A stretch of 64,000 nt of DNA from Batkoa obscura (Eukaryota). Positions within the stretch are counted from its first letter, which is position 1; each line of letters begins with the position of its first letter. The notes under the pieces were generated by a model. That model saw only the letters and a list, made by a program, of their open reading frames with translations, made no database searches and had not been told where the DNA came from. Of this stretch, positions 12,694 through 64,000 are shown piece by piece. Location of the stretch: the NCBI GenBank assembly GCA_030770535.1, contig JASVEC010000010.1, forward strand, positions 1,302,001 to 1,366,000. The letters run 5' to 3'. Both the position numbers and the translations under genes were made by a program.

Positions 12694-13915
12694 ATGGCTA
12701 CTAAAGAGTATGTAACTTATATAGCCAAAGTGGTATATCCAGCAATGTATAAAACATCATTAGCGTTAGCTTCATTGCTAGTTTTAACAATGATAGCAAT
12801 ATGTAACTTATATTATGATTTCAAATATAGACTAAAACTTTATAGCAATATATGACCGTAAACTAGTTGACAGGGTGACACTTAGAATACAAACTGTCAT
12901 TTCATGTTACGATATATGGTTGCATTCTTTACCACTATGGAGTTCCAAGTATAACCATCAAGGGTCACCTTTATGTACTTTTATTGGCTACCAACTATTA
13001 GCTTTACCTTTATTCTATAGTTTTCTTAATGTCTGCATTGGAATTAATATGCAATTAATTTTTATACATGGAATCAATGTGACATGGAAGATTGAAGCAG
13101 CCTACTGGATTGGATCAGCTTTGCTTACTTTCTTAATTACCATCCCACCTCTCGGTATAAAATTTTCATTATCTATGTTGACATTAAGATTAACCTTGTT
13201 TTGTTTAGCAATGGGGATGTTTGGGTACAGTGAATTCAACGGATGTTTTATTGCAACAGATGATGAAAATTATCTAAAAATGTTCCATTTCTATTCTAAT
13301 ATGTTGATTATGATAGTTTGTATGATTTATTTATTCATAGTTGTGGTTTTCGTTGTAGCTAAAATATATCGAGGATTGAATTTGATAAAAGAGCAAAAAC
13401 TGGCTATAGATGCTAGTCAATCACCCGAAGCTGTTAGAAATATCAGATTATTTGCTTCAAGAATGTAAGATCTCATATTGATATATTTTGTTGTACTAAA
13501 AATATTTCAGCGTATTATATCCTATAATTATGATTATCTCTCATTCCGGATTAATAGTAAATCAAACAGCTTATGACCTTGCTAACATCACGTCTGATGA
13601 TTTGGACGTTTTTTCACTTATTACTGGTGGAATGTTAGGAACTCTTAATTTTGTTGCTTTTTTACTTGACCCAACTGTACACCATGCGTTTATAGTTATC
13701 TATTATAGGGTAGTAAAAAAACAAGAGATTAAAGAATTAGGATCCAATGAACCAAGTAGTTTAGTTTACTCTATTAGTTAATATACTAAATTTTATTAGA
13801 CTATAATGACGTTTTTGAGTTGAAAAGATCTAAAGATGCTGCTAGGGAAGACATCAATAATGAAACTGGAGAGCGAGCATCTATTCAATATTCAAAGTTT
13901 ATTAAAAGTTTGTAA
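12694..13915 (+). CDS. 7-TM GPCR-like receptor G2, type-A cytoplasmic face (344 aa predicted); member of pair 1
   Basis: Predicted exons 12694-12802, 12846-13154, 13209-13464, 13511-13755 and 13800-13915 join to an open 1035-nt frame ending YSKFIKSL*. Seven hydrophobic segments and a TM3/ECL2 Cys pair. Intron 2 is an in-frame 54 nt. Confidence 0.85.
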
Positions 13916-14939: not shown

Positions 14940-15074
14940 ACCTAATATTTGGTAGATTAAAAAAAAGTGATATAGTTCCAATTAAAGTTATAAAGTTTAT
15001 AGAAAGTAAAAAAATCAATCTTATCTTATCTTACAAAAATAGCAGAAAATTTAAAAGTTTTAACATTTAACAAG

Positions 15075-16368: not shown

Positions 16369-17548
16369 TTATAGAGTTCGAACAAATGCATTAAAGCTTT
16401 TATCAAAAGCTTCCTGAGGTGTAAGATGTTCTAAAGAATCCGGACTAGCATAGTTATTTAAATCGATATTAATAGTAAAAAACTTAGTTCTATTGGTAGT
16501 TTCTGATTCATCGCGAAACGTGTTCCTGGTAATAAATCTTAAATATATTTTTCTAAATGCCGAATGAATAGTAGGATCACAACAAAAAGCAATAAAGTTA
16601 AGAGTTCCTAACATTCCACCAGTAATAAGTGAAAAAATGTCCAAATCATCAGACGTGATGTTAGCAAGGTCATAAGCTGTTTGATTTACTACCAACCCAG
16701 AATGAGAGATAATCATAATTGTAGGATACAATAATCTAAAAAATATGTTAGTACAAATCTAATTTATATATACATACATTCTAAAACCCATAAGCTTCAC
16801 GCTTTTAACTGCCTCTACAGAAGCTGCTGATCCTCGAAATAACCGGAACTTTTTAACTAGCTCTGCCTCCTCGTTCAACTTAATTACAACGAAAACCACA
16901 ACTATGAATAAATAAATCATACAAACTATCATAATCAACATATTAGAATAGAAATGGAACATTTTTAGATAATTTTCATCATCTGTTGCAATAAAACATC
17001 CGTTGAATTCACTGTACCCAAACATCCCCATTGCTAAACAAAACAAGGTTAATCTTAATGTCAACATAGATAATGAAAATTTTATACCGAGAGGTGGGAT
17101 GGTAATTAAGAAAGTAAGCAAAGCTGATCCAATCCAGTAGGCTGCTTCAATCTTCCATGTCACATTGATTCCATGTATAAAAATTAATTGCATATTAATT
17201 CCAATGCAGACATTAAGAAAACTATAGAATAAAGGTAAAGCTAATAGTTGGTAGCCAATAAAAGTACATAAAGGTGACCCTTGATGGTTATACTTGGAAC
17301 TCCATAGTGGTAAAGAATGCAACCATATATCGTAACATGAAATGACAGTTTGTATTCTAAGTGTCACCCTGTCAACTAGTTTACGGTCATATATTGCTAT
17401 AAAGTTTTAGTCTATATTTGAAATCATAATATAAGTTACATATTGCTATCATTGTTAAAACTAGCAATGAAGCTAACGCTAATGATGTTTTATACATTGC
17501 TGGATATACCACTTTGGCTATATAAGTTACATACTCTTTAGTAGCCAT
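16369..17548 (-). CDS. 7-TM GPCR-like receptor G3, type-B cytoplasmic face; member of pair 1
   Basis: ATG at 17548. The 5' ~665 nt match G2. ICL3 KLNEEAELVKKFRLFRGSAASVEAVKSVKLMGFR; tail FCCDPTIHSAFRKIYLR...AFVRTL*; no fourth intron. Confidence 0.85.
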
Positions 17549-31612: not shown

Positions 31613-33364
31613 ATGAAACCTATCAAATACCCAAAAAACGTAATGGTCAAACTGATCGAACTGTGCAAGCGTAGTGGCTACTTATTCCCAAGCAGTGAGA
31701 TCTATGGCGGTTTACGAGGAGGGTATGACTATGGTCCTCTAGGTTTAGAGTTAAAAAAAAACATCAGTTCGCATTGGTGGTATCGGATGGTAACTACAGA
31801 TCCCCAGGTCATGGGCTTAGATACTAGTATATTAAATAGCTCTCAAGTATTTTCAGCATCAGGACATTTGAAGAATTTTACGGATGAGTTGGTAGATGAT
31901 ATATTATCAAAGGAGAGATTCAGACCAGATAAGGCAGGGGAATTAAGGATTAGCGGGGATAAGGAAGGAGAAAAGTATATTAAAGTTATTGCGGAGAATG
32001 AAAATGACGTAGAAGGCTTTTTAAAGATTATTGAAAGCAATATTGGGTTAAAAGGGATTAAATATCAAATTAAAAATAAACAAATCAAATTATTTATTAA
32101 ACAAGTAATAAAACCAGAAGATAGTAATGATTATAAAGGTAGGATTGAATTTTTAAATAATAAAGAAGAAGTTATAGAGTATCCATATAATGGTTATGTA
32201 TCTAAAATCAATTCTCCTTTTTTGACAGAAAGCCGAAAGTTTAATTGTATGTTTAAAACATTTTTGGATCCTATAGATCCTTTACAACGATTAATAGAAT
32301 CTCCAAACCCAAAAGAAACATTAGAGCAGATCAATAATACCTCTGTCGTTTATCTACGCCCAGAAACGGCACAAGGCGTATTTATCAATTACCTTTATTG
32401 TTTGAGATTTGCAGGTAATAAAATACCTTTTGGTGTAGCTCAATTAGGTAAAAGTTTCCGAAATGAATTAAGAGTAGAACATATGATCTTTAGAACTTTA
32501 GAATTTGAACAAATGGAGTTACAATTTTTTACTTTACCTAAGAAAGCTAATGAATGGTTTGATGTTTATGTCCAAAAAAGAATGGATTGGTGGTTTGAGT
32601 TAGTTAACAATAAAGAGTTATTTCGTAAAAGAAATCATGAAGATAAAGAACTAGCTCATTATGCAAAGGCTTGTACAGATGTGGAGTTCATGTTTCCTTG
32701 GGGCTGGGGCGAGTTAGAAGGTATTGCTAATAGAGGCGACTTTGATTTGAAATCCCATATGAATGCTAGTGGTAGAAATTTTAGAATTACAGATAATGAA
32801 AATATCAATAATAATAGTAATAAAAGTAGTAATAATGAGTTAGTAAATAATAATGAGAATAATGAAAATGACAATCAAGTAATACCTTATGTAATCGAAT
32901 CCTCTTCTGGATTAAATCGAGCATGTTTAGCTATACTATTAGATGCATTCACCATCCAACAAGATCGTATTATATTGAAATTAAACCCCAAAATAGCACC
33001 CATCAAGGTGGGAATATGTCCCTTAATCAACAAAGAAGAATTCAATAATATAGCAGAACAATTAAATAGTCAATTTTTAATTAGAAATATCTCAACTAGA
33101 TTATTAAATCAACAATTAAAAATTGGTAAAAAATACTATCGTATGGATGAAATTGGCACTCCTTATTGTATTACTATTGATTATCAAACATTAGAAGATG
33201 AAACGGTGACTATTCGTTTTAGAGATACTCAAAAACAAATTAGAGTTAATATTAACCAAGTAGTTAATCATATTCATGAGGCATTAAATGCAGATATATT
33301 AATGAAGCCTATTACTATTAATAAGATAAATGGCAATAATAATGATAATACTATAGAACAATAA
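31613..33364 (+). CDS. Glycyl-tRNA synthetase, homodimeric (alpha2) class IIa, bacterial-like, intronless
   Basis: SSEIYGG..GGYDYGPLG, LRPETAQGVF, GKSFRNE...EFEQME (motif 2), LAHYAKACTDVEF.FPWGWGELEGIANRGDFDL, VIESSSGLNR (motif 3), and anticodon domain IGKKYYRMDEIGTPYCITID. Confidence 0.92.
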   Translation: MKPIKYPKNVMVKLIELCKRSGYLFPSSEIYGGLRGGYDYGPLGLELKKNISSHWWYRMVTTDPQVMGLDTSILNSSQVFSASGHLKNFTDELVDDILSKERFRPDKAGELRISGDKEGEKYIKVIAENENDVEGFLKIIESNIGLKGIKYQIKNKQIKLFIKQVIKPEDSNDYKGRIEFLNNKEEVIEYPYNGYVSKINSPFLTESRKFNCMFKTFLDPIDPLQRLIESPNPKETLEQINNTSVVYLRPETAQGVFINYLYCLRFAGNKIPFGVAQLGKSFRNELRVEHMIFRTLEFEQMELQFFTLPKKANEWFDVYVQKRMDWWFELVNNKELFRKRNHEDKELAHYAKACTDVEFMFPWGWGELEGIANRGDFDLKSHMNASGRNFRITDNENINNNSNKSSNNELVNNNENNENDNQVIPYVIESSSGLNRACLAILLDAFTIQQDRIILKLNPKIAPIKVGICPLINKEEFNNIAEQLNSQFLIRNISTRLLNQQLKIGKKYYRMDEIGTPYCITIDYQTLEDETVTIRFRDTQKQIRVNINQVVNHIHEALNADILMKPITINKINGNNNDNTIEQ

Positions 33365-33482
33365 ATTATATATAACTGAATTATATAAAATAAATATATT
33401 CTATAAAGTTAATAAATTATTTATAAATTATTTACAAATATATACATTTTTTACTTTGAGTTTTATATTATTATAACAATTA

Positions 33483-34492
33483 TTAAGGTAAAGCATCTTT
33501 AAATCCAATGTAAGCTTTATCAATATCAAATTTAAAATTATGAATTTCATCTTCAGTTAATTCTTGATTGGCTTTCATGGAATTTATAACTCTCAACCTA
33601 AAATAATACAAATTAATATAGGGCATATAAGATAATAATATGTATTATCATTATTATCCTATTTATGGTATTATTAATAACATTAAATATCTTACCAATC
33701 AAATATTTTATCTTTTCCATCAAAATTTTGAATACCGTTAGACTCTAAAGCTAACGAATTGATCGTTTGTGCTAAGGCTGATAGTTCAGGAAATAATTGA
33801 CTTGGTTGATTATAACCCAACTCTAAAGAATCAATAACTGTAATAAATTTCTACAATTATAAGATTAATAAAACCAATTATTTTATGTATTATTAACATT
33901 AAGGAGTAATATTATATTATGATTAACTTACTTCCCCAGCAAATAGTGTTTTCTTAACAACAGAATTATTATTTTCATTTTTAGCTAATAGCAGCGTCGC
34001 TGGGTAACCTTCTTGAAATCGAAATTTAGCTAAGGGAGCTTCAAACTAAATTAATAATAAAACCATAAACTACAACATCCTCAATCCTAAAATAAATCCT
34101 ATCCTTACCTGATAAGTTTTTAGAAATGTGTCTAAGTTTGGCATCTTTTTACTAACTGAAGTTAAAGCCACTTTATATTGAGCTATTAACAAATTGCACT
34201 CTTCCGTATACCTATAAAGTAATTGAATATTTTGTTAACTGAATATATTTGATGGGTTGGTGAATTAATGGGGATATATTGATACTTACTCTTCAGGTTC
34301 AATAATACCAGAAGAATAGCCTTTTTCTAATAATTCCATAGCTATTATTATCGAATGTAAATTGGCTAAATTTAATATCTCCCCTCTTTCTTTACTATTA
34401 TTATATAACTTTATTCCATCTTACACAAATAAAATTAGTCGAATTGATTATTTAATTTTATTTAATTTTATTTAATTACCTTCTTCCTCCAT
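33483..34492 (-). CDS. VPS28: ESCRT-I subunit Vps28 (multi-exon, absent from the ORF track)
   Basis: Manual splicing gives MEEEDGIKLYNNSKERGEILNLANLHSIIIAMELLEKGY...EEYTEECNLLIAQYK...GYPAT...KFITVIDSLEL...LRVINSMKANQELTEDEIHNFKFDIDKAYIGF, matching Vps28 N- and C-domain motifs; GT-AG introns. Confidence 0.85.
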
Positions 34493-34685
34493 AACTAAAA
34501 TTAATAAACTTTAAAATAGTACAAGATTTTAAATGAATTATATTTTTTATTGAAATTACGAAATTCATTTTGCCAATAAACTATACTATTTAATTGGTTA
34601 ATTTTTATTTCAGTTCATTACACCAAGACTAAGCCTCCGAATTAACTGAATTTTTTATCCTAATTTTGTTCTATTTGAAAAAAGT

Positions 34686-35153
34686 ATGCGAGCAACAAGA
34701 CTATATCAACGCTTACACTTATCCTTATTAACCGAATTCAAAAAGCAAATATGTAAAACCGCCTACACTCAAAATATAAATTTACACTCTCGCAGTTTCA
34801 TCACGAGCCATCGCCCAAAAGAACAATTACCCACCACCAATGCTCCTCCCCCACCTTCTCCAAATACTAAAGAAGCAAAACTGAGTTTAACCTTTAAATG
34901 TAAAGTATGTAATGTCTATAATAGTAATGAAATCTCTAAAGTAGCATACACACAAGGAGTAGTCTTAATTCAGTGTACTGGATGTGATAACCGACATTTA
35001 ATTGCAGATAATTTGAATTGGTTTGAGGATTATAAATCGAATTTGGATACTATTGCCAAAAGTAATGATGAAATGGTGATGAAGTTTGATAATAGGAAAG
35101 AGATGGAAGAATATATGAAGCAAAAGGGAATTGGAAAAAAAAAGGAAGAATAG
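34686..35153 (+). CDS. ZIM17: DNL-type zinc finger protein (mitochondrial Hsp70 escort, Zim17/Hep1-like)
   Basis: FKCKVC...AYTQGVVLIQCTGCDNRHLIADNLNWF; Arg-rich N-terminal presequence-like region. Confidence 0.9.
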   Translation: MRATRLYQRLHLSLLTEFKKQICKTAYTQNINLHSRSFITSHRPKEQLPTTNAPPPPSPNTKEAKLSLTFKCKVCNVYNSNEISKVAYTQGVVLIQCTGCDNRHLIADNLNWFEDYKSNLDTIAKSNDEMVMKFDNRKEMEEYMKQKGIGKKKEE

Positions 35154-35291
35154 ATAGTAGGGGATGGGACTGCGTTTTTTAAGATTATAGATTAATTTAG
35201 TTAGAAATAAAAAACGATCGTAATTAAAATGATTTTTTATACTTTAATAGAAGTTGAGAATAGTTTTTATAATCGAGCTTGTTTATTTTAT

Positions 35292-37075
35292 TTAGACAGT
35301 AAAAGATTTTACATCTTTAGTATGAGTAGAAGCAGTACGAATTTCAGGACTAATAAATTCCACAGTAACAGACCAAGAACCAGAAGATGGATTTAAAATT
35401 TCTAATTGATCTTTAAATTGAGTTTGAACTTGATTATTTAAAGTCCAAGTAATGCTTAATTTTTCACCGGGTACAGGAGTAGGTGTACGGAATTGACCAA
35501 TTTTAAGAGTAGATAAAGAAATTTTAGTTTTATCTGCCTTCACCCCATCAATCAACGAAATACGTTTTAAAAATTGGAACCACATACCTTCTTTGCAAAC
35601 ATTACAGAAAGAATTATGAGTCATGTTTCTCATTAAACAACCTGCGTTGGTTGGACGATATGTTTTTCTACGATTAACATCCCAAGTAGGGTAAGCGGAG
35701 TAATTATCATTAGCTATTTTAAATTCATTTTCATCTCCAAACTCATGTAATGTAACTGAAGCAATCATACGTGGTATATCTTGATTTGTTGAAGCTGTCT
35801 TAGATCTTACAGTCAAAGTATGAGTGCCAGCTGTAAATCCTTGTTCTCCACGCCAGTCGTAGAATTCACGATCATCACTACCTCTTGCTTGCCAAGGTAG
35901 TACTTTACCATCAAGAACAAATTCTAAAGAATTAGCTTCACCAGCAGCAGTAACCGAAGTCAATAAATACCACCTTTTAAATTTACCATCAGATGTAAAA
36001 GTAAAAGATTTTTGGCCATTAGCAAGATTATGCCAAGGATATTCCAATAATCTATAAATGGCTTTTTCTTCTCTTACAGGTCCAGATACCCAATTTTTCC
36101 ATCCAGTATTAATTGAAGTAGCTGCATTAACACCTGAATAAACCTGCCCATTATCATATTCTTCACCAACAGATACAAAATTATGACCCATTTCATGACG
36201 TAACACAACGGTACCGGTTCTTGCTGATTTAGTAGAAATTACGAATTCTCCGCCTAAACCTCCATAATAATCGTCATTAGCAATTAAGCTTGGATAATCA
36301 CAAGCATTACTACCAGTCAACTGGCAAATCTGACGAGCATAGTTAGAATTTCCAGTAAATATAGCTCTCAATTGACCAGCTTCACGATATAATTTAAATG
36401 GTGTGTTTTTAGCACCATTGTAACCGATACCAGAATCAACAGACTCCACATGAATAGCCCAAATATTAAATAGGGGTAACCATGATTTAAAAGTAGGACC
36501 CTCAAACATATCTGTAGTTAATCTCGAAATATCAGAAAAGAACTTGGTTTTCTCTGAAGCCGTATAACCATCTCCCATAAATACAACATCAATACGATTA
36601 GCTGCGTCTCCATTATCTACAATTTTACGTACATCGGGAGCATTAATAGCGACGTCATCGTTGCTATTCTTAGCCGAGGAAGATAATGGTTTCAAATTTT
36701 CTACTTTACTACATATGGATTGAATATGAGCATTAATAATGGATTTACTATAAGAATAGAGCTCAATGATATTGGAATTTACAGGTTCTTTAGTTAAATT
36801 ATCGTTGGCGGAAGAGATTGCTGGCTTACTAAGGATAGAAAGAGCATTAACATCATTGGAGTTTAAGTCTTTATAAGTGACGTTCTCGCTTTCAGAGATA
36901 ATGAGACAAGCTTTAGAGCGATCACCTTCTTGATGGAGTCTTACATGATGAATACCAGAAGAGCTAATGAAAAAGATGAGGGTTAGTATATGGTGGTTAG
37001 GAAGTTATATGAGAAAACTTACAAAATGGTATTGATGTTTAAAGACAAAACTAAAATTGAAATTAAAGAATTCAT
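35292..37075 (-). CDS. Secreted M64-family (IgA-peptidase-like) zinc metallopeptidase
   Basis: Exon 1 (37075-37023) encodes the signal-like MNSLISILVLSLNINTIF; one intron to 36964. NRIDVVFMGDGYT, HEMGHNF..VGEEY (HExxH), CLMR...FCNVC. Confidence 0.9.
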
Positions 37076-38699: not shown

Positions 38700-39240
38700 T
38701 TATTAAATATTCAAAGTAATATAAGTAAAGCGGTTTATTCAGCGGTGCGCAAAGTATTGTTGATGTTAGCAGTCATAGTTGTACTTACAATAGTTATATT
38801 GAGTAAGCTCTACTATATTAAATCGTCAACATAACAGTTCAATGAAAATTTAGTAGATAGGATAACCCTATGCTTATAAACTGGTATTATGGTGTATGAT
38901 ATTCAGTCAAATTTCTTACCACTGTGGAATCAAACTTAAAATTATAAAGAATCTCTATTGTTTGTTTTTATCAGTCCTCAACTGTTATTCTTTCCCTTAT
39001 ACTATAGTTTCTTCAAAGCTGGTATTGGAATTAATTTACAGTTAGTATTTAAGGATATATTTTTGTGTTTAAGAATTTCACTAATGATTTTTCCACTCAA
39101 ATAGCGCTTAAAACATAGAAAAAGTAATGAAGCCAAAAAACATCCCTATTTATACATAATACCAATATAGCTAAAAGATTGAAGTTGGCTACTGAATTGG
39201 TACTTCTGTGCTTCTATTGTTAGCTATAATTTATTTACTT
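38700..39240 (+). pseudogene. GPCR pseudogene G8 (5' half), truncated by Sola copy 4
   Basis: Remnants LAVIVVLTIVIL|gtaag, LVDRITL.L*TG, YYSFFKAGIGINLQL and EVGY*IG; MITE at about 39051-39146. Confidence 0.75.
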
Positions 39241-40024: not shown

Positions 40025-41728
40025 ATGCAAACTTTCATAACTAAACTTCGAAATGGAATTTTTGAAAATTTCAATACAATAGGGAGGAGTACACAATATA
40101 AACATTGTAATTCATTTACATCAATTTTAAGAGCTACTTATAACAACCCAAGGTTCATGGAATTTTATAATAAAACAAAACAAAGAAAAGATATATTATC
40201 AAAGTTTACTATCGATAACAATAAACTTAATCAACCAATGTATAAAATTAGTGCTTTAAGGGAAACAGGAAACAAAAATCAACAAGTAGCGTTATTATCA
40301 ACTATAGCTTCAGTATATTCTTTTGATGAATGTAAGAGTTTTGGGTTTAATATAAATAGAAATCAATATGATTATTCAAAAACAAGTAATAATAATGAAA
40401 TATCAACATTACAGCCTATTATTAAAAATACAAAAAAAATTAAAGATGACCAAATTGAAACTATCATACAATATTTACTAAATGATTCAACTATTTCATC
40501 AAGATTTAATAAAAAAAATAACGATAGTAAATATTCATCAGATAATATATATATATTAAATAAAAGTAGAAGAATGATATATAGTAAATATTTGAATGAT
40601 CTAAGAGATAAAGCAGTAGCCAGGTCAACGTTCTTTAAATATATACCAAGTAATTTCAAAAATCCAGCAAGAAAAACGGATCTATGTAATATATGTACCC
40701 AGTATACAGTTAGAAAAAAGTTATTTGAAAATAAAATAAATACAGCAAAAAACAAAGCAGAGATAGAAGAAATTTTCAACAAAGAAGAAAAATTATACAA
40801 ATTACATAAATTCTGTGTTGATACTCAAAAAAACACATTTAATGAAACTATTAAAAAATTAAATAACAAAAGTTGTATAATAGTTTTAGATTTTAAACAA
40901 AACATGGAAATAGGAACAAGACCAGATTCAATAAATCTAGATCATTATAATAAACAAGCTATATCAGTATTAGGCTTTGGTGTATTATATTTAAAAGATG
41001 ATAAAACAATAGGCAAAGTTTATTTTGATTATTTGTCTAAAATATTCAATCATGATTCAGCATATGCAGGAGATTGTTTAATCAGTTTGATCTCTACAGA
41101 GCTTCTATTTAAAAAGTTTACAAAAATTAATATATGGGCAGATACAGGAAATCATTTTAGATCCCAGGAGTTTCTACACTATGTGTTTAAACAAATTCAT
41201 AAAATAAATAGTAGTTTGAATGTTAATCTTAATTTTTTTGCTGAGCATCATGGAAAAAGTATAGTTGATGGACATTTTGGAAACCTTTCAAAATGGAAAA
41301 GTAGTTTTGAAGGGTTAGGTAAAATAGAAGATATCGATCAATTAATCTCAAGATTTGAGGCTTTTATTTGCGAGCATAATAAAATTAATAACTCGACTAT
41401 TAATAATGGGAAAACAGATATAATTTTTAAAAAGTATAAAAGAAACAAAAATACAAAAAGAATAATAGAGATGCAGGGCATTAAGAAGTATTTACATTTT
41501 ATTAAACATAACAATAAACTACATTGTTATCCAGTATCTGATACATCAAAAAAAAGCGATATAGTTCCAATTAGAGTTATAGAGTCTATAGAAAACAGAA
41601 AAATTAAAAGATCGATCCCAGCTTACCTTACGAAGATAACAGAGAATTTCAAAATTTCGATATTTACTAAGCAAGTAAGTAGTTTGTTGAATGATAGAAA
41701 TAGATTGCTAAATGTTAAGATTACTTAA
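40025..41728 (+). CDS. DDD transposase, Sola2-like (567 aa)
   Basis: Intact ORF with all three catalytic-Asp motifs. Confidence 0.85.
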   Translation: MQTFITKLRNGIFENFNTIGRSTQYKHCNSFTSILRATYNNPRFMEFYNKTKQRKDILSKFTIDNNKLNQPMYKISALRETGNKNQQVALLSTIASVYSFDECKSFGFNINRNQYDYSKTSNNNEISTLQPIIKNTKKIKDDQIETIIQYLLNDSTISSRFNKKNNDSKYSSDNIYILNKSRRMIYSKYLNDLRDKAVARSTFFKYIPSNFKNPARKTDLCNICTQYTVRKKLFENKINTAKNKAEIEEIFNKEEKLYKLHKFCVDTQKNTFNETIKKLNNKSCIIVLDFKQNMEIGTRPDSINLDHYNKQAISVLGFGVLYLKDDKTIGKVYFDYLSKIFNHDSAYAGDCLISLISTELLFKKFTKINIWADTGNHFRSQEFLHYVFKQIHKINSSLNVNLNFFAEHHGKSIVDGHFGNLSKWKSSFEGLGKIEDIDQLISRFEAFICEHNKINNSTINNGKTDIIFKKYKRNKNTKRIIEMQGIKKYLHFIKHNNKLHCYPVSDTSKKSDIVPIRVIESIENRKIKRSIPAYLTKITENFKISIFTKQVSSLLNDRNRLLNVKIT

Positions 41729-45391: not shown

Positions 45392-46622
45392 CTATAAACT
45401 TTTAATAAAATTGGAAAAATGAAATGAAATAGGTCTCTCAGCTTCATTCTTGGCATTTTCACTTACTACATTTGTAAATGTGGTCAATTCAAACTCATTA
45501 TTACAATCTATTTAAAGTCAATAAGTTATTTAGTTAAAACGGAACCAACTTACCTATTTCATTAGGTTGTTTTATAGTAATCTCTTGGTTTTTTATAATT
45601 TTGTTGTATATAACCTTAAGCGCATGGTGTACAGTTGGATCAAGAAAAAATGCAGTGCAATTAAGGCTTCCAAGTAGCCCAATAGTAATATATCCAAAAG
45701 CATCAGCCTCTAATGAGGCAAAGCCGGTGAGATCGTATATTGCTTTTGTCAACACAAGCCCAGAATGGCTAAATATCATGATTATAGGATATAATACACT
45801 AAAGTTTATTTAATAAATAATATAAATATATATAATATAAAATCTTACATCCTTGAGGCAAATAACTTGATATTTTTAATACTTTTTTTTGGTCGATTGT
45901 CATCCATCATTTCTCTTTGTTCACTCATCAAATTGACTCCACGATATAGTCTAAATCCAACTAGTATTACTATAATCAATAAATATATCATGCAAAAAAT
46001 CATAACCAAAACATTAGTATAAAAATGAAGCATTCTGGTATATTTTTCATCTTCCATTGCAATATAACATCTATTGAACTTATTATATCCAAACAGTCCC
46101 ATAGCTATATAGATTATATTAGTATAAATTTATAAGTACATAAGATATTAATATACCGAGTGGTGGAATAGTAATTATTAGAGTAAGTAAAATGGATCCA
46201 ATCCAGTAAGCTGCTTCAATTTTATTTGTCGTTTTAACTCCATGTATAAAAACTAATTGTAAATTGATTCCAATAGCAACATTAAGAAAGCAGTAGAATA
46301 AGGGAAAAGCTACACCTTGATAGCCAATAAAAGTACACAAAGGAGATCCTTCATAATTAAACTGACGAGACCAAAATGGAATACAATGCAACCAAATATC
46401 ATAAGATGAAATCGCAGTTTGCAACCTAAGAGTTACTCTATCAACTAACTTATAGTCAATTATTGCTAATTGTTTTAATATGCTTTAATCTAAATAATAA
46501 CAGGAATTACATATTACTATCATTGTTAACACTACTACTGAAGCCGAAGTAAGTGATATTTTTGACATTATTGGATAAACTTGGTATTTAATTATATAGT
46601 GTATGTCATCAATAGTCCCCAT
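45392..46622 (-). CDS. 7-TM GPCR-like receptor G9 (type-A-like)
   Basis: ATG at 46622 (MGTIDDIHY...), five exons, ends FSNFIKSL*. Confidence 0.85.
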
Positions 46623-47398: not shown

Positions 47399-48465
47399 TT
47401 ATACAAAGCTATTCGTAATATCTGTGCTATCACAAGGTCTTGTATTAACGAACCTTAAATAGATTTCCTTAACTGCTGAATGTATAGTAGGATCACAACA
47501 AAAAGCGATAAAATTAAGTGTTCCTAGCATTCCTAAAGTAATATAAGTAAAAGCATCTAAACCGAGAAAGTCAGCACCACTTAGATCATAGATCGTTTTG
47601 CCTAATGCTAGACCAATATGAGTGAATATCATGATTATCGGGTATAATAAACTAAACTTCTTTTAGTAAGTTACGCATGATGTTATAAGACCTTACATTC
47701 TAGAAGCAAGCAGCTTAATGTGTTTGATACTTTCAAGTAATCGGCTATTATCCGTTGCCAGTTTTTGCTCTTCTGTTATAGTTAATCCACGATATAATTT
47801 TATCAATACTAAAATCACAACGATTAACAAATAAGCCATACAAACAAACATAACTAAAGGGTTGGTAAAGAAATGAAATGTTCTAGCAAAAGCTTCATCG
47901 TCTGTTTTAAGATAACATCCATTGAAATCACTATATCCAAACAGTCCCATAGCTATATAGATTATATTAGTATAAATTTATAAGTACATAAGAGATTAAT
48001 ATACCAAGTGGTGGAATAGTAATTATTAGAGTAAGTAAAATGGATCCAATCCAGTAAGCTGCTTCAATTTTATTTGTCGTTTTAACTCCATGTATAAAAA
48101 CTAATTGTAAATTGATTCCAATACAAAGGTTAAGAAAGCAATAAAGTAAAGGAAAAGCCACACCTTGGTAGCCAATAAAAGGGCATAATGTTGATTCGGG
48201 AGTAGCATATACGCGAGCCCAAAGTGGGACAGAATGTAACCAGATATCATAGCATGAAATAGCAGTTTGTAACCTAAGAATCACCCCATTGGCTAATTCA
48301 AAATCGTATATCACTATTTCTTCTAAACCTATTTTAAGTTAAATGGTGTTGTAGATCGCATAAAACTATCATTGCCAGTGCCACTATTGAAGCAAAAGTA
48401 ATTGAAATTTTCAATATTACTGAGTATACTTCTCTGATATATCCTGAAATGAGATCCTTATTCAT
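47399..48465 (-). CDS. 7-TM GPCR-like receptor G10, possibly defective
   Basis: ATG at 48465; seven TMs present. The intron 1 donor reads GC and the intron 4 donor appears lost, so the C-tail is uncertain. Confidence 0.6.
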
Positions 48466-50135: not shown

Positions 50136-51409
50136 AGATTAATGGATCACAGTTCAATAAATTAAATTAAGTAATACTTTCTAGCTTTTTTTAAAGATAA
50201 TGTATTGACTTTGAATAGACCGTGATGATATCTTTAAATTGAATACAACTGAATATATTATAGTAAAGATTTTGATAGCGTGACTGAAAACCAAACACCA
50301 ATTAATATAAATTTACTAAAAGTTTATAATTGTCATCTAGTAGTCAATCGTTTATCATATTTATATTTGGGACTTACGCTGCTTCTTTGATCATTTTCAT
50401 GTAGGGACATCTTCTTTTGTTTACAAAATTATTTGCAATTATGTCTATATTACTTGATACATCTATGTTATTTAGAGCTATAGAAATTTATTCAAAAATA
50501 TAAATAATAAGTTGGTGTAATAAAATGATTCAAAACAATAAATTTAATATTAAATATATAGTGATGTTTTTTTTAGTTTGATCGCTTTTTCCGTTTTTTA
50601 AGCACTAGGTGAAGAAGCCGTTAATAAAATTCTTAATACATCCCTAAATATTAAAATCAAAAAAAGCTTCAAATACGTATTATTCTGAAATAATGTGTAT
50701 TTGGCCGTAAAGACGGAACCCAAAATTACTGTATGAGATTATGAATTTCAATTATTTTAATACTTCATTGAATTTGGGAAATAATATCAATACTTCTCAA
50801 GCGTATCAAATATAGGTTTAAATCTTGTATTTAGATAAAAATAAGGGTATAGTTCTCATTTTCCTAAAAGAAAATTAATTGGACAAAATTACTTAATTTG
50901 ATGAAATTTCTGGTTGAAATAAAATAAAAGTGATATCAAGAAAACATCTTCAAATGTTTTTTTGTTTAAGAAATTTACCATTTTTTCTATTTGGTAGCAT
51001 TTAAAAAATGTAAAAAATGATGTAACGAAAAAATACGCCCCCCGTTTGGAAAATTTAATTATAGCTCCTTTTATAAATAAGTATAACATCCCACCAACCA
51101 CTTATGCATAAACCCAATTGAAAGTATAAAATCACTTGATTCTAAACAAACACTTTATTGAATTGCTTGAATGCCTAAAATATATCTTTTAATGGCAATT
51201 TATGGGAAAGTAGAATACTGTGTGATACATTATTATCTAAGGAAAACCTGTTTTTATCAAGTAAGGTAACTCGAACATTGAATAACCTGTATTAGTAAAA
51301 CCCAACCAAATAGACAAACAAACATAAATTAGAGGTTGGTAAACAATGCATTTTATAAAGTATATAAGCAAAAAGATAAGATTAATTTTATTTTATTTTA
51401 TTCAACAGT

Positions 51410-52635
51410 ATGGGCACAGTTGAGTATATACATAGTGTAACAAGAAAAGAGATTTATCCAGTGTTAACAAAGATTTCACTTGTTGCAGCCTCATTACTTG
51501 TATTGATAATGATATTAATATGTAGGTATAGTATAAGTTTTATTGAAATATATTAAAAATAAATAGCAATATATGATCGTAAGCTGGTTGATCGAGTAAC
51601 TCTTAGACTACAGACTGCTATTTCATGTTATGATATTTGGCTTCATTCTATCCCATTATGGCTTAGTCGATTTAATTATAAAGAATCGCCCTTTTGTACA
51701 TTTGTTGGTTACCATGGTGTGGCTCTTCCATTATACTATTGCTTCCTAAATGTTTGTATTGGAATCAACTTGCAGTTAATTTTCATACATGGTATTAATG
51801 TAACATGGAAAATTGAAGCGTGCTATTGGATTGGGTCTATTTTACTTACTTTGTTAATTACTATTCCGCCACTTGGTATAATCATATCTTAATATCCATA
51901 TATTCATATTAATTCATTTTATTTAGGAATGGGATTGTTTGGATATAGTGAGATTAATAAGTGCTTTATTGCCACTAATGATGAACAATATGCTAGAATG
52001 TTTAACTTTTATGCAAACAACCTACTTATGATTATTTGTATGGTTTATTTACTGACAATTGTGATTTTAGTTACTGGTAAAATATACCAAGGATTAACTT
52101 TAATAAAAAAGCAAAAAGTGACGATAGACGCGACCCAATCGCCTGAAGCTATCAAAAATATCAAACTATTTGCTTCAAGAATGTAAATTTTACACTATTT
52201 TATTTAAGTACATTAAAATAGTATTTAGTTTGTTATATCCTATAATTATGATCTTCACTCATCTCGGGTTAGTATTGACCAAATCGATTTATGATTTTGG
52301 TGGTAAGATTTCTCTAGGTGCAGATACATTTGCATATATTTCTGGGGGGCTTCTAGGAACACTTAATTTTATTGCGTTTCTTCTTGATCCAAGTGTGCAT
52401 TTGGCATTTAAAACTATATATTACAGAATTGTTAAAAAACAGGAGATTAGTAAATCGGATTCAGATAAATCAAGTAAGATCAATCGATTTTGACTAATTA
52501 ATATATTAATTTTTATTAGATTATAACGATGCTTTTGAGCTAAATGCACTTGAAAATATCGAAAAGGAAGATTTTAACTTCAAAGCTGAAGGCCTCGGAT
52601 CTATTCATTACTCTAAATTTATTAAAAGCTTATAA
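51410..52635 (+). CDS. 7-TM GPCR-like receptor G12, type-A cytoplasmic face; member of pair 2
   Basis: ATG at 51410 (MGTVEYIHSV...), five exons. ICL3 KIYQGLTLIKKQKVTIDATQSPEAIKNIKLFASR; ends YSKFIKSL*. Confidence 0.85.
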
Positions 52636-53118
52636 CAAAACTTATGATAGATTTTTTAGCTCTATTTTGTATATCAAATTGAGTTACAATTTATTCCAAT
52701 ATTGTCCTTGTTAAAGGTGAGATACAATGCTGTACTCCAAGAAAATATTTTACCCAATGAGAACGCTCAAATACAAAGCAGTTGCTATTACCATTGGCCT
52801 TAGCTCTTAAATTGTAATCACTCAATTCCTTGGTATAGAATATTATATATCTAAACTTAGACATTGTATTTAAAACTGTATTCTATTTAAAATACTCTGA
52901 TTATAGAAAAATCAAAATTACAACACTTTGAATATTAATGTTAGATTAAATATAATGTTAATTTACAATATGATTATAATATTTAGTTCTATGTAGTCAC
53001 TTTATCTATAAAAACATAATAGACTACCTCATTAAATGTTTATCAAAATTTTTATCAAGATTTTCTACTCCAATATCTTATTGTTCTCTTAATCTACTTA
53101 TTAACAATTAAATACTAT

Positions 53119-53579
53119 TGTGAGATATCGCTTTGTCAGCCCCATGGTTAGTTATAGCATAACAATCGCCTAAGCTGTTGTGTTCTCGAGTTCAAAGAAA
53201 ATCAACCCCACGTTCTTAGTTTGATTTGATATGAGAATTTCTATCTTCGTCTCAAAGAATATTCTCCCCTCGTTTTGATACTTATACTTATCGGAGTATA
53301 AAAGAGATTCTAAAACATAATAGCTTGAGGCTTTTTAACTTAATTATTTCCTGATATCTCGTACATTTAATAAAGCCACTAAGTTTTCTTAATAATATCC
53401 TACGTAGATTTACATTAGTATTGTCTATTCTATCTGTCCTATATAGCTTGTAACCTATTACATGCTATTCTTCATAATCTAAGTCTATCTTAGTCACATA
53501 AACTAAGGCCTTTCGACTTACAATATAGTCAACCCAGCAATAGCTGTTCTTGACTCCAAACACTGAGTACCAGATTTCA
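53119..53579 (+). mobile_element. Solo-LTR-like element (family L)
   Basis: TGTGAGATATCGC...CAGATTTCA with CTAT on both flanks (terminal CA apparently lost). Confidence 0.85.
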
Positions 53580-53871
53580 CTATACACAAATAAATAATCG
53601 GTTTTTTAAATTCTCTTTTGTAGCTAATCCAACTCAATTCTAAAATAAATAATAGTGACTTTTAAAGCTAGTTATTTAAATAGTTGATTTTCATTTGAGT
53701 TTATAATTCTAAAGAAATAAAATCTAGCATGTCGTTATGTTGATTATTATTATTGCTGATATCTTATTTTTACATTAATAATGTCAAGTTATTATTTATT
53801 AAAAACATATTAGAATAAAAAATATTAGATGCATAATATTAAAATAAAAAAAGGTTAAAATGTTAAGAATT

Positions 53872-53970
53872 GGGGATATTTTTTTTGACTTCATTACTTT
53901 TTATATCTTTTAAGCATTATTTGAGTAGAAAAATTATTAGTAAAATTCTCAAACGCAAAAATACATCCCC
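53872..53970 (+). mobile_element. About 100-bp Sola-type MITE
   Basis: TSD AATT; GGGGAT...ACATCCCC. Confidence 0.85.
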
Positions 53971-54074
53971 AATTTTTAAAGTACAAATCTAATGGTATAA
54001 AAGCAATTTATCAGTTGGAATTATCATAAAAAGCTAGCTTTAGTTAATTTATAAATTACGTTCTATTAGAATAT

Positions 54075-54277
54075 GGAGATGTTTTTTTGTGATTAAGAAT
54101 TTTACTAACAATTTTTCTACTCAAATAGCGCTTAAAAAATGGAAAAAGAATGAAATCAAAAAAAACATCACCATATGGGGATGTATTTTTGTATTTAAGA
54201 ATTTTACTGATAATTTTTCCACATAAATAATAGCGCTTAAAAAATGGAAAAATAATGAAACTAAAAAAAACAGCCCC
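54075..54277 (-). mobile_element. Tandem pair of MITEs sharing an ATAT site
   Basis: ATAT-[54075-54172]-ATAT-[54177-54277]-ATAT. Confidence 0.85.
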
Positions 54278-54675
54278 ATATGGTAAAAAATTGTTGACTT
54301 TAAATTTTGCCAAAAAAATTTACTTTTAAATAAACCGTTATTTATTTTAGAATTGAGCTCGACTAGCTGGACTATAAATTGTTCATTTGCTTATAATTAA
54401 TTATTTATGTTATACTTAAACAAAGATCAAGCTTCAAAAAGATCAATCGATTCCACATATAATTTAACTATAATATTACCACTAAAAAAGCTGTAAAAAG
54501 AGTTATAACAGTTATAAAATAAAATAAAAGTGAAAACAAAAATCACAAAAGATATTGAGCTCTAGCTTATCTATTTCAATTTGTTTTTTATGCTATTGTA
54601 AAAAAAAAAATTTTAACATCTGAAAAAACCTTATCCTAAATATACCATTTACTATTTAAATATGTTATATCGGAG

Positions 54676-55912
54676 TTATAAAGTTCGAAGGAATGCCTCA
54701 AGCTTTTTATCAAAAGCTTCCTCAGGTGTAAGAGCTGCTGAGGAATCAGAGCTAGCAAAATTATCCAAATCAATATTGACAGAAAAGAACTTAGATTTCA
54801 TATTGACTAGAGTAAATTAGTTTAGGCTTTATTTATGTAAATATAAAAATATTCTTACTATCTGTAGGGTCTCGGAATTTATTCCTAGTACTTAATCTTA
54901 AATATATTTTCCTGAATGCAGAATGGATAGTAGGATCGCAACAGAAAGCAGTAAAGTTAAGAATACCTAACATCCCCCCAGAAATATATGCAAATGTATC
55001 TGCGCCTGGAGAAATCTTACCAGTAAAGTCATAAATTGATTTCGTAAGTACCAGTCCAAGGTGTGTAAAGATCATAATTGATGGATAAAGCAAGCTGAAT
55101 CATGAATTAGTAAACACATTATTTAAAAGATTAAAATACATTCTAAAGCCCATAAGTTTCACACTTTTTGTTGCTTCTATGGAAGATCTTGATCCACGAA
55201 ATAGTCTGAAATTTTTTACTATTCCCGTTTGTTTACGTAATTTGAAAACAACTAAAATCACAATTGTCAGTAAATAAACCATACAAATAATCATAAGTAG
55301 GTTGTTTGCATAAAAGTTAAACATTCTAGCATATTGTTCATCATTAGTGGCAATAAAGCACTTATTAATCTCACTATATCCAAACAATCCCATTCCTAAA
55401 TAAAATGAATTAATATGAATATATGGATATTAAGATATGATTATACCAAGTGGCGGAATAGTAATTAACAAAGTAAGTAAAATAGACCCAATCCAATAGC
55501 ACGCTTCAATTTTCCATGTTACATTAATACCATGTATGAAAATTAACTGCAAGTTGATTCCAATACAAACATTTAGGAAGCAATAGTATAATGGAAGAGC
55601 CACACCATGGTAACCAACAAATGTACAAAAGGGCGATTCTTTATAATTAAATCGACTAAGCCATAATGGGATAGAATGAAGCCAAATATCATAACATGAA
55701 ATAGCAGTCTGTAGTCTAAGAGTTACTCGATCAACCAGCTTACGATCATATATTGCTATTTATTTTTAATATATTTCAATAAAACTTATACTATACCTAC
55801 ATATTAATATCATTATCAATACAAGTAATGAGGCTGCAACAAGTGAAATCTTTGTTAACACTGGATAAATCTCTTTTCTTGTTACACTATGTATATACTC
55901 AACTGTACCCAT
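54676..55912 (-). CDS. 7-TM GPCR-like receptor G13, type-B cytoplasmic face; member of pair 2
   Basis: ATG at 55912; the 5' ~663 nt match G12. ICL3 KLRKQTGIVKNFRLFRGSRSSIEATKSVKLMGFR; tail FCCDPTIHSAFRKIYLR...EAFLRTL*. Confidence 0.85.
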
Positions 55913-57671
55913 ACCGTCCAATCAATTTAAAATTTATTACACTAAACTGAATTTTGGAAATTTAATTGCACTACTGATATATTTATACTTTTTTTGTTAA
56001 GCCACTTTTTCATATATTCTTGCTTCAAACAGGTATATGAAATATTAATTTTATGTTAAACAGTTTAACAGCTCTAAATGAAATATGCAGTTTCCTTTAT
56101 GATGATATATTTTAGCAGAAATTGTATCCCTTATACTCACATTCTTATCTTATAGGCTCATAAAATTATAGAAGTCCGATTTATTTTATTGTATGTATTT
56201 AATAAAAGCTTGTTATCATTTTATTTTACTTTAAACTACTAGTAAAATATAAATATTAACATATATCTGTATTCACTAGAATCTATATCAAAATAACCTT
56301 TAAACCAATAACATAGTACTATATGAAAACAGTTTCTCGGACCTATACCTAAGTAGTTAAATCCTGATGATATGAATAATATTCGATAAACTTGTTTATG
56401 AAATTAGAACATTATAAAAGTCATGTTTTGAATTCCCAAGTTTTGTTTTTATCACCTGTTTCTCTATTTATTAAACATACGTCTAATACCTATGCTATAA
56501 TGTTTTTGAATATACCACAATATTTGTAAGATTGTGACCTAAAATATATGACCTAAAATATATGACTCTTTCAATAACATGATAAAAAACTTTAGATATA
56601 TAACTCTATTAAAAATAAATGAGACTGATTTGTTAGGCAGCTTTTAGTAAATCAATCTCATTTATTTTGAGTATAGTTATAATGCTGTATAAAATTAAGA
56701 AAAATTTATCTGTATACAGTTCTAAATATGGCTTTAATACGACGATGTTTTTTTTGGTTTCATTACTTTTTCATTTTTTTTAAGCGCTATTTGAATGGAA
56801 ATATTGTCAGCAAAATTCTTAAACAAGAAAATACATCCCCACAGAGTGAAAAAAATTGGTGACTTCATACTTATAAATTCTTATGCTTGAATGCTTTATA
56901 TGAGTCTTCAAATCGTAAACCTTAAGTTTTTAAAGATTCTAGCTTATAACATTATTCAGAAAGTGATTGAGCTGTGCTATAAACACAAAACTTGTATATA
57001 AATTTATGAAGTTGGCAAATGTTTTAAATCAGGTTTAAGATGTGGCAATTAAATTTATACATAATGTGATTCTAAGTAAGCAGGATCTATCTATATATGG
57101 ACTTAAAGATTAAAAAACATCGTTAATTAAATTTCAAAAAATATGTCCACCTATGAAATTTTTGGATTGAGCTCCTGACTATTCTATAGCAATGGTTTTT
57201 TATTCCGATATAACAACTTATATTTCTAATTCTGTTACATAAATCAAAATTATAAAACAAAAAATATTTTATACATATTTAAAAAAATTGTATATTACCT
57301 TTAAATTTCTTAGTTTTATATGCTAAAAATTAGTTTAATAGAAATGGTTTTTATTTTAATAAAAAGCAATCTGTTTTTTCGCTTTAATAAATAAAGATAA
57401 GAACTTTATCTTCTACACTATTTAGGTTAGAGCATAAAGTGGAAATCATTGTAGAACTGGTTGCATTTAGATATCATTCGTTGTTTTAATTTATCAATTT
57501 CTTTTATATAAATTTAGGCTTTTAGTTTACTTGTAGCTCTTATATTACATAAAAAATTAAAAATAAAACAAACAATAACAAGCATCCAAATGTAACTAGT
57601 TTTTTCAGCGTTTTCCCATTAACTTTATAAATTCATTCTAAAATGGTACTTAAATTGCTTTTTTTACAAAT

Positions 57672-60842: not shown

Positions 60843-61915
60843 TTACACGAAGCTACTCATAGTATCTATGTCATTACAAGACCTTTTCCTATTAACAAAT
60901 CTTAAATAGATTTCCTTAACTGCTGAATGTATAGTAGGATCACAACAAAAAGCGATAAAATTAAGTGTTCCTAGCATTCCTAAAGTAATATAAGTAAAAG
61001 CATCTAAACCGAGAAAGTCAGCACCACTTAGATCATAGATCGTTTTGCCTAATGCTAGACCAATATGAGTGAATATCATGATTATCGGGTATAATAAACT
61101 AAACTTCTTTTAGTAAGTTACGCATGATGTTATAAGACCTTACATTCTAGAAGCAAGCAGCTTAATGTGTTTGATACTTTCAAGTAATCGGCTATTATCC
61201 GTTGCCAGTTTTTGCTCTTCTGTTATAGTTAATCCACGATATAATTTTATCAATACTAAAATCACAACGATTAACAAATAAGCCATACAAACAAACATAA
61301 CTAAAGGGTTGGTAAAGAAATGAAATGTTCTAGCAAAAGCTTCATCGTCTGTTTTAAGATAACATCCATTGAAATCACTATATCCAAACAGTCCCATAGC
61401 TATATAGATTATATTAGTATAAATTTATAAGTACATAAGAGATTAATATACCAAGTGGTGGAATAGTAATTATTAGAGTAAGTAAAATGGATCCAATCCA
61501 GTAAGCTGCTTCAATTTTATTTGTCGTTTTAACTCCATGTATAAAAACTAATTGTAAATTGATTCCAATACAAAGGTTAAGAAAGCAATAAAGTAAAGGA
61601 AAAGCCACACCTTGATAGCCAATAAAAGGGCATAATGTTGATTCGGGAGTAGCATATACGCGAGCCCAAAGTGGGACAGAATGTAACCAGATATCATAGC
61701 ATGAAATAGCAGTTTGTAACCTAAGAGTCACCCTATTAACTAATTTAAAATCATGCATTGCTATTCATTTTTAATCTATCTTAAGTTAAATGATATTATA
61801 AATTACATAATGCTATCATTGTCAGCACCACTAGCGAAGCAAAGGTAAGTGAAATTTTTGAAATTACTGGGTATATTTGTTTATTTATATAATCTGCATA
61901 TTCTTCTTCATTCAT
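60843..61915 (-). CDS. 7-TM GPCR-like receptor G14 (last exon uncertain)
   Basis: ATG at 61915 (MNEEEYADYI...); the central ~830 nt are essentially identical to G10. The tail exon near 60700-60810 appears frameshifted. Confidence 0.7.
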
Positions 61916-63074
61916 ATTTCGGTGTAATTTGAACTTCAAAAGTTTTTTTTTATACAATCTCAATTTAAGCTATTCTACTGTATATATACTTATTTTTCGA
62001 ACTTTTTTTTCAATCTTGTTTAAACAAGTATAGTATTCATTTGGAGATGTATTTTTTTAAGAATTTTGCTAACAATCTTTCTGCTTAAATAGCGCCTAAA
62101 ATGGAAAAAGTAGTGAAGTTAAAAAAAACATCCACATTTTCTAATTAAAACTTTAATACATCTGAATTTTATTAAAGGTCGAAGTGGATGTCTTAAACTT
62201 GAATTTGATGAGTAGAAAATAGGAAAAATTAATATGATTAAAGCTCAGTAAATACAGGTTAAAAACGCCCAATCTACGTTTAGATTATGGCATAGTAAAC
62301 GTGATTTTTATGAGTTTTAAAATGATTAAATAAAGAATCAAAACTATTTTTAACAAAACGTGATATAGTAAAAATGAATAAAAATGATATTTTGTTCTAC
62401 TTATTAATTTCGTGATGAAATTTTTAATTTTTAAGGGATGAGTTAAATTTTCAACAAACAGCAGTTGTAACTCTATTGCAACCTAATTTGTGGTAATCTT
62501 TAAAGCAGGATGTTTACTCATTTGTTTTTATAAACCATAATGGTTTTTTAAACTGATTTTAGTAAAATTTATCCTTAAATAAATAGTTAACTAAGTCCTA
62601 AAAGAGCTGCAACATCTGTAAGGATGTTTTTAAAACTATCTCTTTTTCCAATGGAGTTTCATTGGCAAAAGTGATTGATTACAACCATAAAATTAACTAT
62701 TTCAATATCAAGTCATATTTTTTAAAATAATTTTATATAGTAAAACAAATGCTTGAGTAAAAATATACTGTACATTATATTGCAATATATATATTATCCC
62801 CAGTAACTTCTCTATTAAACATTGCTCTTTTTGTTGAAGAAAATCTCACTATATAAATCTGATAAAAAAATAAAGAAATAACAGTGAGTTTGAAAAATTC
62901 ATTTAAAAAATATAAACTATTGACTTACTTATTGTACTAAAATTTAATAACCTATGGCTCTGTTTTTCTATACTATAATCAAATGCTATTTATTATTTAA
63001 AGCTATCAATAGCTCAATTAGTTTTTATAAATAGTGATATTGTTTATGTATAATTATTTAATTTTACAACTTAC

Positions 63075-63180
63075 TAAAGATGTTCTAAGGACGCTTAGCT
63101 TTATAAAATTTCTCGTTGATCCAATTGTACGCTATGAATTTAAAATCCTATACTATATAATTGTAAAAAATCAAGAGATT
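63075..63180 (+). pseudogene. GPCR relic G15 (TM7 to helix 8)
   Basis: VLRTLSFIKFLVDPIVRYEFKILYYIIVKNQEI matches family GTLNF.AF..DPTVHHA..IYYR..K.QEI. Confidence 0.7.
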
Positions 63181-64000
63181 CCTTTTACTTTCGATCCCTT
63201 CTGCCATCAAATTGGATGAACATACGAAAATTTAATACTCCTTTTCCTCTGTTCCTTAGCTTCCTCTTCTTACATTTACTTCTTTTGTTTTCTTACCAGT
63301 TATATCCATCCATTCTTATAAATATTTCTATTGTGATGCTCATATGCCTATCTCCTTTTTTCTTCCTTGACGACAACTCATTTACAACAGATTCTCCCAT
63401 CTTGTTCAATGAAAAACTTTAATGTAATCTAAAACTATCTCTAAGTTCTGTAACCCAACTCTACCTCCCTTACTTATTCCATCTATTTCTCATCCCATAT
63501 CTTTAATTATAGACTACCCTGTTACTCCTTTTACTCCTCCTTAGCCTTTTAATGTTCTTGAAATAAAACACTAAAATGATACTACTACTAAATTTTAAAA
63601 AAATTAAGAGGTGAAAAGCATTGTAAGCTAATGAATCAAATAGTTTTACTAAAGTTAGTCACGAATGTATGGAGGAAAGTCAAAGAATGTAAATATAAAT
63701 CTATTAAGAATTTTAATGACGAGATTAATGTCATTTATGAATATATGAAATTTAAAATTTATTGAATGATTGTTTTTTGAGATGGAAAGAAAATACAATG
63801 TAAAATTGCCATCAATTCTATTATTAGTAGTTTTTCTTTATAATTATATATCAAATATAATTAATCTAATTGATACGGAGTCTTTTGCACATTATATTTA
63901 AAATAAAAAAATATACCAATGTAAAAAAGGGATTTTTATCTTCCCTTTAAACCATTTTTATCAAACTTTTTGATTTACCATCATATGGGGATGTATTTAT

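Follow-up and report, generated by a model that had tools for sequence, protein, structure and literature searches.

Partial homogenisation, also called merohomogenization, is known from several families of vertebrate paired immune receptors, namely NKG2/KLRC, Ly49, PIR, and NKR-P1 (PMC3210942). In the accessible text of the sources, every description of partial homogenisation in paired receptors concerned such single-pass receptors, and the literature searched (mainly open-access main texts) held no description of this design in G-protein-coupled receptors (GPCRs) or fungi, nor of the gene family reported here. GPCR expansions in Entomophthoromycotina have been reported in fungal and Conidiobolus GPCR studies, and the term gene conversion is absent from their accessible main texts (PMC12842992, PMC12387763). 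Here, we analysed a 64-kb stretch of Batkoa obscura contig JASVEC010000010.1 (the window, to which all positions refer), which carries a cluster of seven-transmembrane (7TM) receptor genes. It holds two convergent pairs of a type-A and a type-B gene, in which the ligand-facing parts are highly similar between partners and the signalling parts divergent, as in paired receptors. Judged from sequence, conversion probably keeps the ligand-facing bundle of the partners matched and selection probably keeps two cytoplasmic faces, such that one ligand would be turned into two outputs per pair.

Shared and type-specific segments of the receptor pairs

Pair 2 is formed by the type-A gene G12 (A2; 51410..52635, + strand, 345 amino acids (aa)) and the type-B gene G13 (B2; 54676..55912, - strand, 347 aa), both spliced models with a GPCR fold. 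Their first shared tract (tract 1) runs from the start codon to the end of transmembrane helix 5 (TM5), including introns 1 and 2. It aligns 51408..52072 (+) with 55250..55914 (-) over 665 nucleotides (nt) with one mismatch (51415/55907), which is silent and lies in codon 2, exactly as the original prediction had described it. Introns 1 and 2 are 100% identical between the two genes, whereas intron 3, outside the tract, is 59% identical. In pair 1, consisting of A1 (G2; 12694..13915, +, 344 aa) and B1 (G3; 16369..17548, -, 346 aa, modelled without intron 4), the corresponding tract covers 12691-13357 and 17551-16885, that is, 667 nt without a mismatch. Given that background identity among the paralogs is ~75%, an identical run of 657 nt would be expected by chance with a probability of about 1e-82. 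Tract 1 starts no more than 3 nt from the start codon, where homology begins, and ends at codon 189 in pair 2 and codon 190 in pair 1 (G12 numbering), in the middle of exon 3 at the cytoplasmic end of TM5 and away from introns. In all cases seen, covering three pairs and three lineages, the boundary fell within codons 182-190. The prediction of ends about one codon apart in the two pairs, clustered near TM5 and not scattered, was thus borne out.

In three DNA runs close to the window, one of them possibly the window's own source, tract 1 of pair 2 was assembled as one 657-nt contig with a depth of 43.7 in X1, 77.7 in X2, and 889 in X3, and the flanks had depths of 21-24, 44-47, and 438-448, respectively. 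Double depth beside single-depth flanks in all three runs indicates two real copies and rules out an assembly artefact as the source of the match. Exon shuffling and alternative splicing are ruled out as well, as the boundary lies within exon 3 and the genes are on opposite strands, and so is a simple recent inverted duplication, as loop and tail are near-saturated at silent sites and group across pairs. A partial model among the proteins of Neoconidiobolus thromboides FSU 785, P0001, stops precisely where tract 1 does, which a break of that assembly at this point would explain.

The match extends beyond the region from ATG to TM5 that had been described; a second shared tract (tract 2), overlooked before, comprises TM6, extracellular loop 3 (ECL3), and TM7. 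In pair 2 (52236..52370, +, and 54953..55087, -), 109/135 nt and 40/45 aa are identical, and in pair 1 128/135 nt and 42/45 aa. Across codons 232-249 of G12 and G13, 10 of 18 codons differ silently with no residue change, and the excess constraint on tract 2 of pair 2 is significant compared with A1/A2 (p 0.006). Between the two tracts lies intracellular loop 3 (ICL3), the cytoplasmic TM5/TM6 hairpin; the type-A version (52073..52180, +) has only 9 of 36 aa in common with that of its partner, and the type-B version (55142..55249, -) carries the FRLFRG motif. FRLFRG and KLMGFR each occur twice in six-frame translation of the window, in B1 and G13 only, in agreement with the claim that the type-B signature is limited to these two genes.

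A third pair was found among the FSU 785 proteins, namely P0006 (A) and P0007 (B), which was counted as a pair by consecutive locus tags on one contig and by sequence, convergent orientation being established for the window pairs. Amino-acid identity across the three pairs revealed a mosaic of four segments, in which the two shared tracts alternate with two type-specific segments (ICL3, and helix 8 with the tail). From the N terminus to TM5 (N-TM5), identity was 96-100% within pairs versus 59-70% between them, and for TM6-ECL3-TM7 it was 88-94% versus 39-61%. In contrast, ICL3 was only 14-31% identical within pairs versus 56-67% among B and 50-69% among A genes, and helix 8/tail 22-36% identical within pairs. 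Phylogenetic trees agreed: the shared segments grouped by pair and the loop by type, six B loops forming one clade (support 96/96) and 13 A loops another. The tail tree had weaker type grouping (support 78/81); in its distal part, the tail of P0007 resembles the other B tails by no more than ~30%. The resemblance of ICL3 and tail by type across pairs (G12 to A1, G13 to B1), proposed originally, therefore holds for both segments. Approximately unbiased (AU) tests rejected the alternatives in five of five cases, i.e., a single B clade for TM6-TM7 (p 1e-13; N-TM5 was left out, partners being identical there) and partners as clades for ICL3 and tail (4/4 tests, p <= 1.4e-4). Further type-B genes are P0011, P0012, and P0067, and P0021 represents an allele of B1. 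Two more distant paralogs on one contig with adjacent accessions, P0008 and P0048, are 77% alike at TM5 and differ in their loops, one of which is aromatic-basic and B-like; they are possibly an older, decayed pair.

The B-specific segments are conserved. In ICL3, B1 and B2 differ at 20 of the 25 silent sites, as against 15 of the 83 replacement sites (Fisher p 2e-8), and the tail has the same skew of silent over replacement differences; type-B ICL3 and B helix 8 are under purifying selection. The loop core is 73% identical between B genes and 45% between A genes, and for helix 8 the values are 89% and 62%. Among the B-specific residues, the most strongly conserved are found at the TM5/TM6 hairpin tip and within helix 8, regions that in solved GPCRs form the G-protein contact surface. 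Furthermore, the segments spared from conversion correspond to the main coupling determinants in muscarinic chimeras, in which coupling depends most on the cytoplasmic ends of TM5 and TM6, on ICL3, and on the C-tail (PMC13083859).

By its predicted fold, the family is part of the GPCR superfamily. The type-B homologue P0007, modelled with AlphaFold (97-row alignment; pLDDT 90.4, pTM 0.86), had seven helices in GPCR topology, an ECL2 hairpin, and helix 8, and fitted solved GPCRs with a best Z of 22.4 (root-mean-square deviation 3.4, 257 aligned). What we call ICL3 consists in this model of long cytoplasmic extensions of TM5 and TM6 with a tight turn between them and FRLFRG at its tip. The type-A model, of lower confidence, agrees with a GPCR fold, and every match listed by Foldseek for the models was a GPCR. 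At the sequence level, none of six homologous proteins and none of three G12 exon pieces matched a Pfam GPCR family (faint matches were ignored as chance) or reached the cut-off of the cAMP-receptor-like PF05462 (Dicty_CAR), which was reached by 4 of 36 distant relatives; a PDB sequence search gave no match at E <= 10. The nearest Atlas clusters were Zoopagomycota GPCR, Dicty_CAR, and GPR157-like ones. We consider the family related to the cAMP-receptor-like GPCRs but not a member of PF05462. It has the 7TM GPCR fold in common with the cAMP-receptor-like, Git3-Gpr1, and GPR157-like GPCRs of early-diverging fungi (PF05462, PF11970) and differs in that the window-type proteins match no GPCR Pfam family; in the literature searched, no paired arrangement was found described for that group.

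Conversion within the pairs and elsewhere in the cluster

Several observations indicate that homogenisation postdates lineage splits. Between pairs 1 and 2, silent sites of N-TM5 are near saturation (pS 0.65), and partners differ at 0 and 1 sites. In X9, from a lineage ~7% diverged, positions 55272-55912 were represented by one 641-nt contig with 47 differences from the window and a depth of 65.8, versus 36.4 for the adjoining G13 upstream contig. One end of this contig lay at the start codon and the other 22 nt short of the TM5 boundary, and its 36 listed differences comprised 14 intronic, 12 third-position, 7 first-position, and 3 second-position sites. A single diverged contig at double depth is the pattern expected of two copies re-homogenised after the lineage split, and points to conversion that is continuing. 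In the presumed RNA runs X6 and X7, two alleles ~6-7% apart were present within one run (window 54500-56100), reflecting either mixed strains or a heterokaryon. The second allele consisted of one diverged tract version and diverged B-specific pieces, with a fork near codon 184; its depth sums fit a shared diverged tract no more than loosely and were not used as proof. A contig whose loop matches P0007 was present as well.

Conversion has also left traces between genes of the same type. The unpaired genes at 48.4 kb (47399..48465, -) and 61.9 kb (60843..61915, -) are near-identical over codons 49-292 and identical across codons 87-292, loop included. Same-type genes were thus converted straight through the loop, so the loop is not resistant in itself. 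Both genes are chimeras with an A-type ICL3, a B-type helix 8 (of 72 nt, 60 and 54 match B1 and 43 match A1), and a decayed B tail, which is short in the 48.4 kb gene. We read them as probable products of a crossing event that cost them partner and tail, the direction being presumed. A 117-nt run of another gene (45392-46622; codons 101-140) is identical to both chimeras, and its FSU 785 allele, P0002, has one residue different within this run, which suggests recent conversion there. The same-strand type-A genes 21135-22360 and 28621-29849 have ~100 nt of upstream DNA in common and identical runs over codons 28-128 and 262-295; unlike in the A/B pairs, their ECL2 and ECL3 differ.

Explanations for the mosaic

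In the mechanism we favour, an old A/B paralog pair would have been duplicated, and a new pocket change in one gene of a pair would pass to its inverted partner by intrachromosomal conversion. Conversion events overwriting the loop or tail would be removed by selection, and the difference between A and B would lie in the choice of G-alpha, the strength of coupling, or desensitisation. The pairs would then combine two specificities with two outputs. We lean towards B as the receptor whose coupling surface is conserved and distinct and whose tail offers more sites for phosphorylation, and outputs of opposite sign for A and B are possible. An extension of this mechanism, in which the pair is a duplicable two-gene unit, two-tract conversion matches a fast-changing pocket, and the A and B faces drive opposing G-protein pathways as an activating and a damping channel for every new ligand, is put forward tentatively and may well be wrong. 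Crossover between inverted repeats inverts the spacer and does not delete it; inversion instead of deletion may explain the persistence of the pairs.

A number of observations weigh against this reading. ICL1 and ICL2 do not differ between the partners of a pair, and these loops, too, belong to the G-protein face. The partners have no upstream similarity (z 0.0 and -0.9) and are therefore possibly expressed at different times. Tract 2 of pair 2 is old, with a silent divergence of 0.55, similar to the between-pair value, and its excess constraint is not significant against the comparison of G12 with the 46.6 kb gene (p 0.17). Identical runs of at least 100 nt exist in four other gene pairs of the window, which are ordinary same-strand paralogs, so homogenisation alone is not special. 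The X9 data do not cover the type-B 3' half, their two copies are not established as A and B, and contig assembly can merge isolated differences. A strict rule giving each type-B gene a matched type-A partner held for three of six genes; the other three (P0011, P0012, and P0067) had a best TM6-TM7 match of 63-71% among the retrieved proteins, an incomplete set. These three are 5'-truncated models, and such truncation, also seen in other FSU 785 models, was not counted as pairing evidence. Finally, the two chimeras persist with open frames and without a convergent partner. The two-by-two matrix of the original prediction stands as a sequence architecture, wider than claimed since it extends to at least three pairs and two shared tracts, but the window is not a clean instance of it.

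The strongest challenge comes from passive conversion, in which inverted neighbours are homogenised where they are alike, loop and tail escaped by prior divergence, and the ligand-face match is a by-product. In yeast mating-type switching, gap repair can overwrite a heterologous insert between homologous flanks, and the 108-nt loop and 45-nt intron of the A/B pairs are just such an insert, flanked on both sides by homogenised DNA. That the loop persists there argues for selection over a passive barrier, and the chimeras suggest that crossings through the loop happen. Together with the purifying selection on the B loop and helix 8, this makes a purely passive origin unlikely, even though tract 1 starts where homology begins, conversion is frequent throughout the cluster, and homogenisation is maybe the default where unopposed (PMC3210942). 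The outcome would still be one pocket with two inner faces per pair. Alternatively, A and B might have the same output and differ in promoter, trafficking, or turnover, giving one specificity at two stages or places. The unlike upstream regions of partners fit this, as does the upstream similarity of the two A genes of the window pairs (z 4.5), the 13-14 Ser/Thr in the B tails versus 7-9 in the A tails of the three pairs, and the identical ICL1 and ICL2. Nevertheless, B-specific conservation peaks at the hairpin tip and helix 8, and both genes were spliced in the same runs (X5 and X6), though these are bulk samples, leaving the explanation improbable.

Two further possibilities concern the converted helices and the inverted geometry. 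An obligate A-B heterodimer formed via matched helices, with one subunit signalling and the other regulating, would account for the membrane helices being the converted parts, and dimerisation has been proposed as the reason for CCR2/CCR5 conversion (in a title cited in PMC6168169). Conversion, however, takes in the extracellular loops and ECL3, the parts most different between pairs (40-50% nt), which fits pocket matching better than a dimer interface, and we judge the heterodimer highly improbable. An invertible switch, in which crossover in the 665-nt inverted repeats would turn the inner 3.2 kb round so that promoters and inner faces change partners, is permitted by the geometry of identical inverted arms with unlike promoters outside and unlike 3' halves inside. 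In both window pairs, though, the A-type upstream region is still joined to the A-type 3' half, and we give the switch scarcely any credence. Matched pockets kept by conversion, with inner faces kept apart by selection, accordingly remain our preferred explanation.

Cluster setting and comparison with known systems

The exons of G12 are 51410-51521, 51567-51875, 51927-52182, 52229-52473, and 52520-52635, and those of G13 55912-55801, 55755-55447, 55395-55140, 55094-54859, and 54806-54676. Intron joints in the presumed RNA runs, bulk samples whose contigs carry no level or cell-type information, show that both genes are spliced: joints of G12 introns 3 and 4 were found in X5 and X6, those of G13 introns 1-4 in X5, and three of these four in X6 and X7, joints of introns 1-2 not being assignable to a single copy. 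Intron 4 is present in A1, G12, and G13 and missing from the B1 model (16369-16735), a likely loss. The stop codons of pair 2 are separated by a 2040-nt spacer (52636..54675). It holds one ~460-nt repeat (53119-53584) and three of ~100 nt that look like transposon ends, and beyond these repeats it has little in common with the spacer of pair 1. The ~460-nt repeat has eight copies in the window, forming a ~1-kb palindrome in the pair 1 spacer (14481-15533) and occurring singly in that of pair 2, likely by independent insertions. The MITE-like (miniature inverted-repeat transposable element) ~100-nt repeat, the end of which resembles the terminus of the likely DNA transposon described below, has 28 matches across the window (e.g., 53871-54281) and very high depth in the DNA runs.

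The window is AT-rich (GC 23-30%). One 7TM gene family is present in ~15 copies, and for 11 of these the model has an open frame. Named close homologues were FSU 785 hypothetical proteins in both homologue searches (8/8 and 7/7), three of which are 99-100% identical to window genes; none of 72 pattern matches on metagenome contigs encodes a relative. Receptor pseudogene fragments with stops or a frameshift lie at 23269-23779, 30332-31297, 38709-39104, and 63046-63219, and those at 23.5 and 31.2 kb have a similar TM6-ECL3 stretch. The cluster is broken up at 31613-36578 by genes for a class II tRNA synthetase (presumably glycyl), a DNL zinc finger protein, and a peptidase M64. An open reading frame of ~567 aa without a Pfam match exists in four near-identical copies, one shortened (3006-4709, 8235-9935, 24837-25994, and 40025-41728). 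The elements that contain it, ~2.5 kb long and bounded by terminal inverted repeats, are likely a DNA transposon.

The three pairs amount to natural chimera experiments, with the same pocket on different inner faces and the same inner face under different pockets. They thereby open an orphan receptor family to direct tests of G-protein selectivity and to the finding of ligands. A caution for other genomes is that short-read assemblies break at such tracts, concealing pairs.

In CCR2/CCR5 and CXCR1/CXCR2, the ligands of the partners differ in part and Gi coupling is largely common to them, a design opposite to the one proposed for the fungus. Like the fungal genes, they are adjacent GPCR paralogs homogenised by conversion in several lineages, but neither sparing of ICL3 and tail nor repeated pairs are described in the accessible text (PMC6168169, PMC2684142). 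SIGLEC11/SIGLEC16 are, like the fungal partners, inverted neighbours a few kb apart with repeated conversion of the 5' ligand-binding part including introns. They are, however, a single pair lying head-to-head at 9 kb, with upstream DNA included in the similarity (PMC5701461), whereas the fungal genes form at least three pairs, tail-to-tail and ~2 kb apart with unconverted promoters (orientation as seen in the window pairs). Closest are the vertebrate paired receptors, in which ligand-binding parts are homogenised after lineage splits, signalling parts are type-specific and group across pairs, and different pairs retain different ligand faces (PMC3210942). Those receptors are vertebrate and single-pass, with separate exons for ligand binding and signalling; in the fungus, outputs are predicted from sequence and the two functions are interleaved in a single 7TM domain with the boundary in mid-exon, for which two separate conversion tracts are needed. 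The G12/G13-type pairs would thus work like vertebrate paired receptors with partial homogenisation, their common pocket suggesting the same ligand for both partners, although we do not class them as members of that group. If true, the apparent independent appearance of this design in a fungal GPCR family would make it a general solution.

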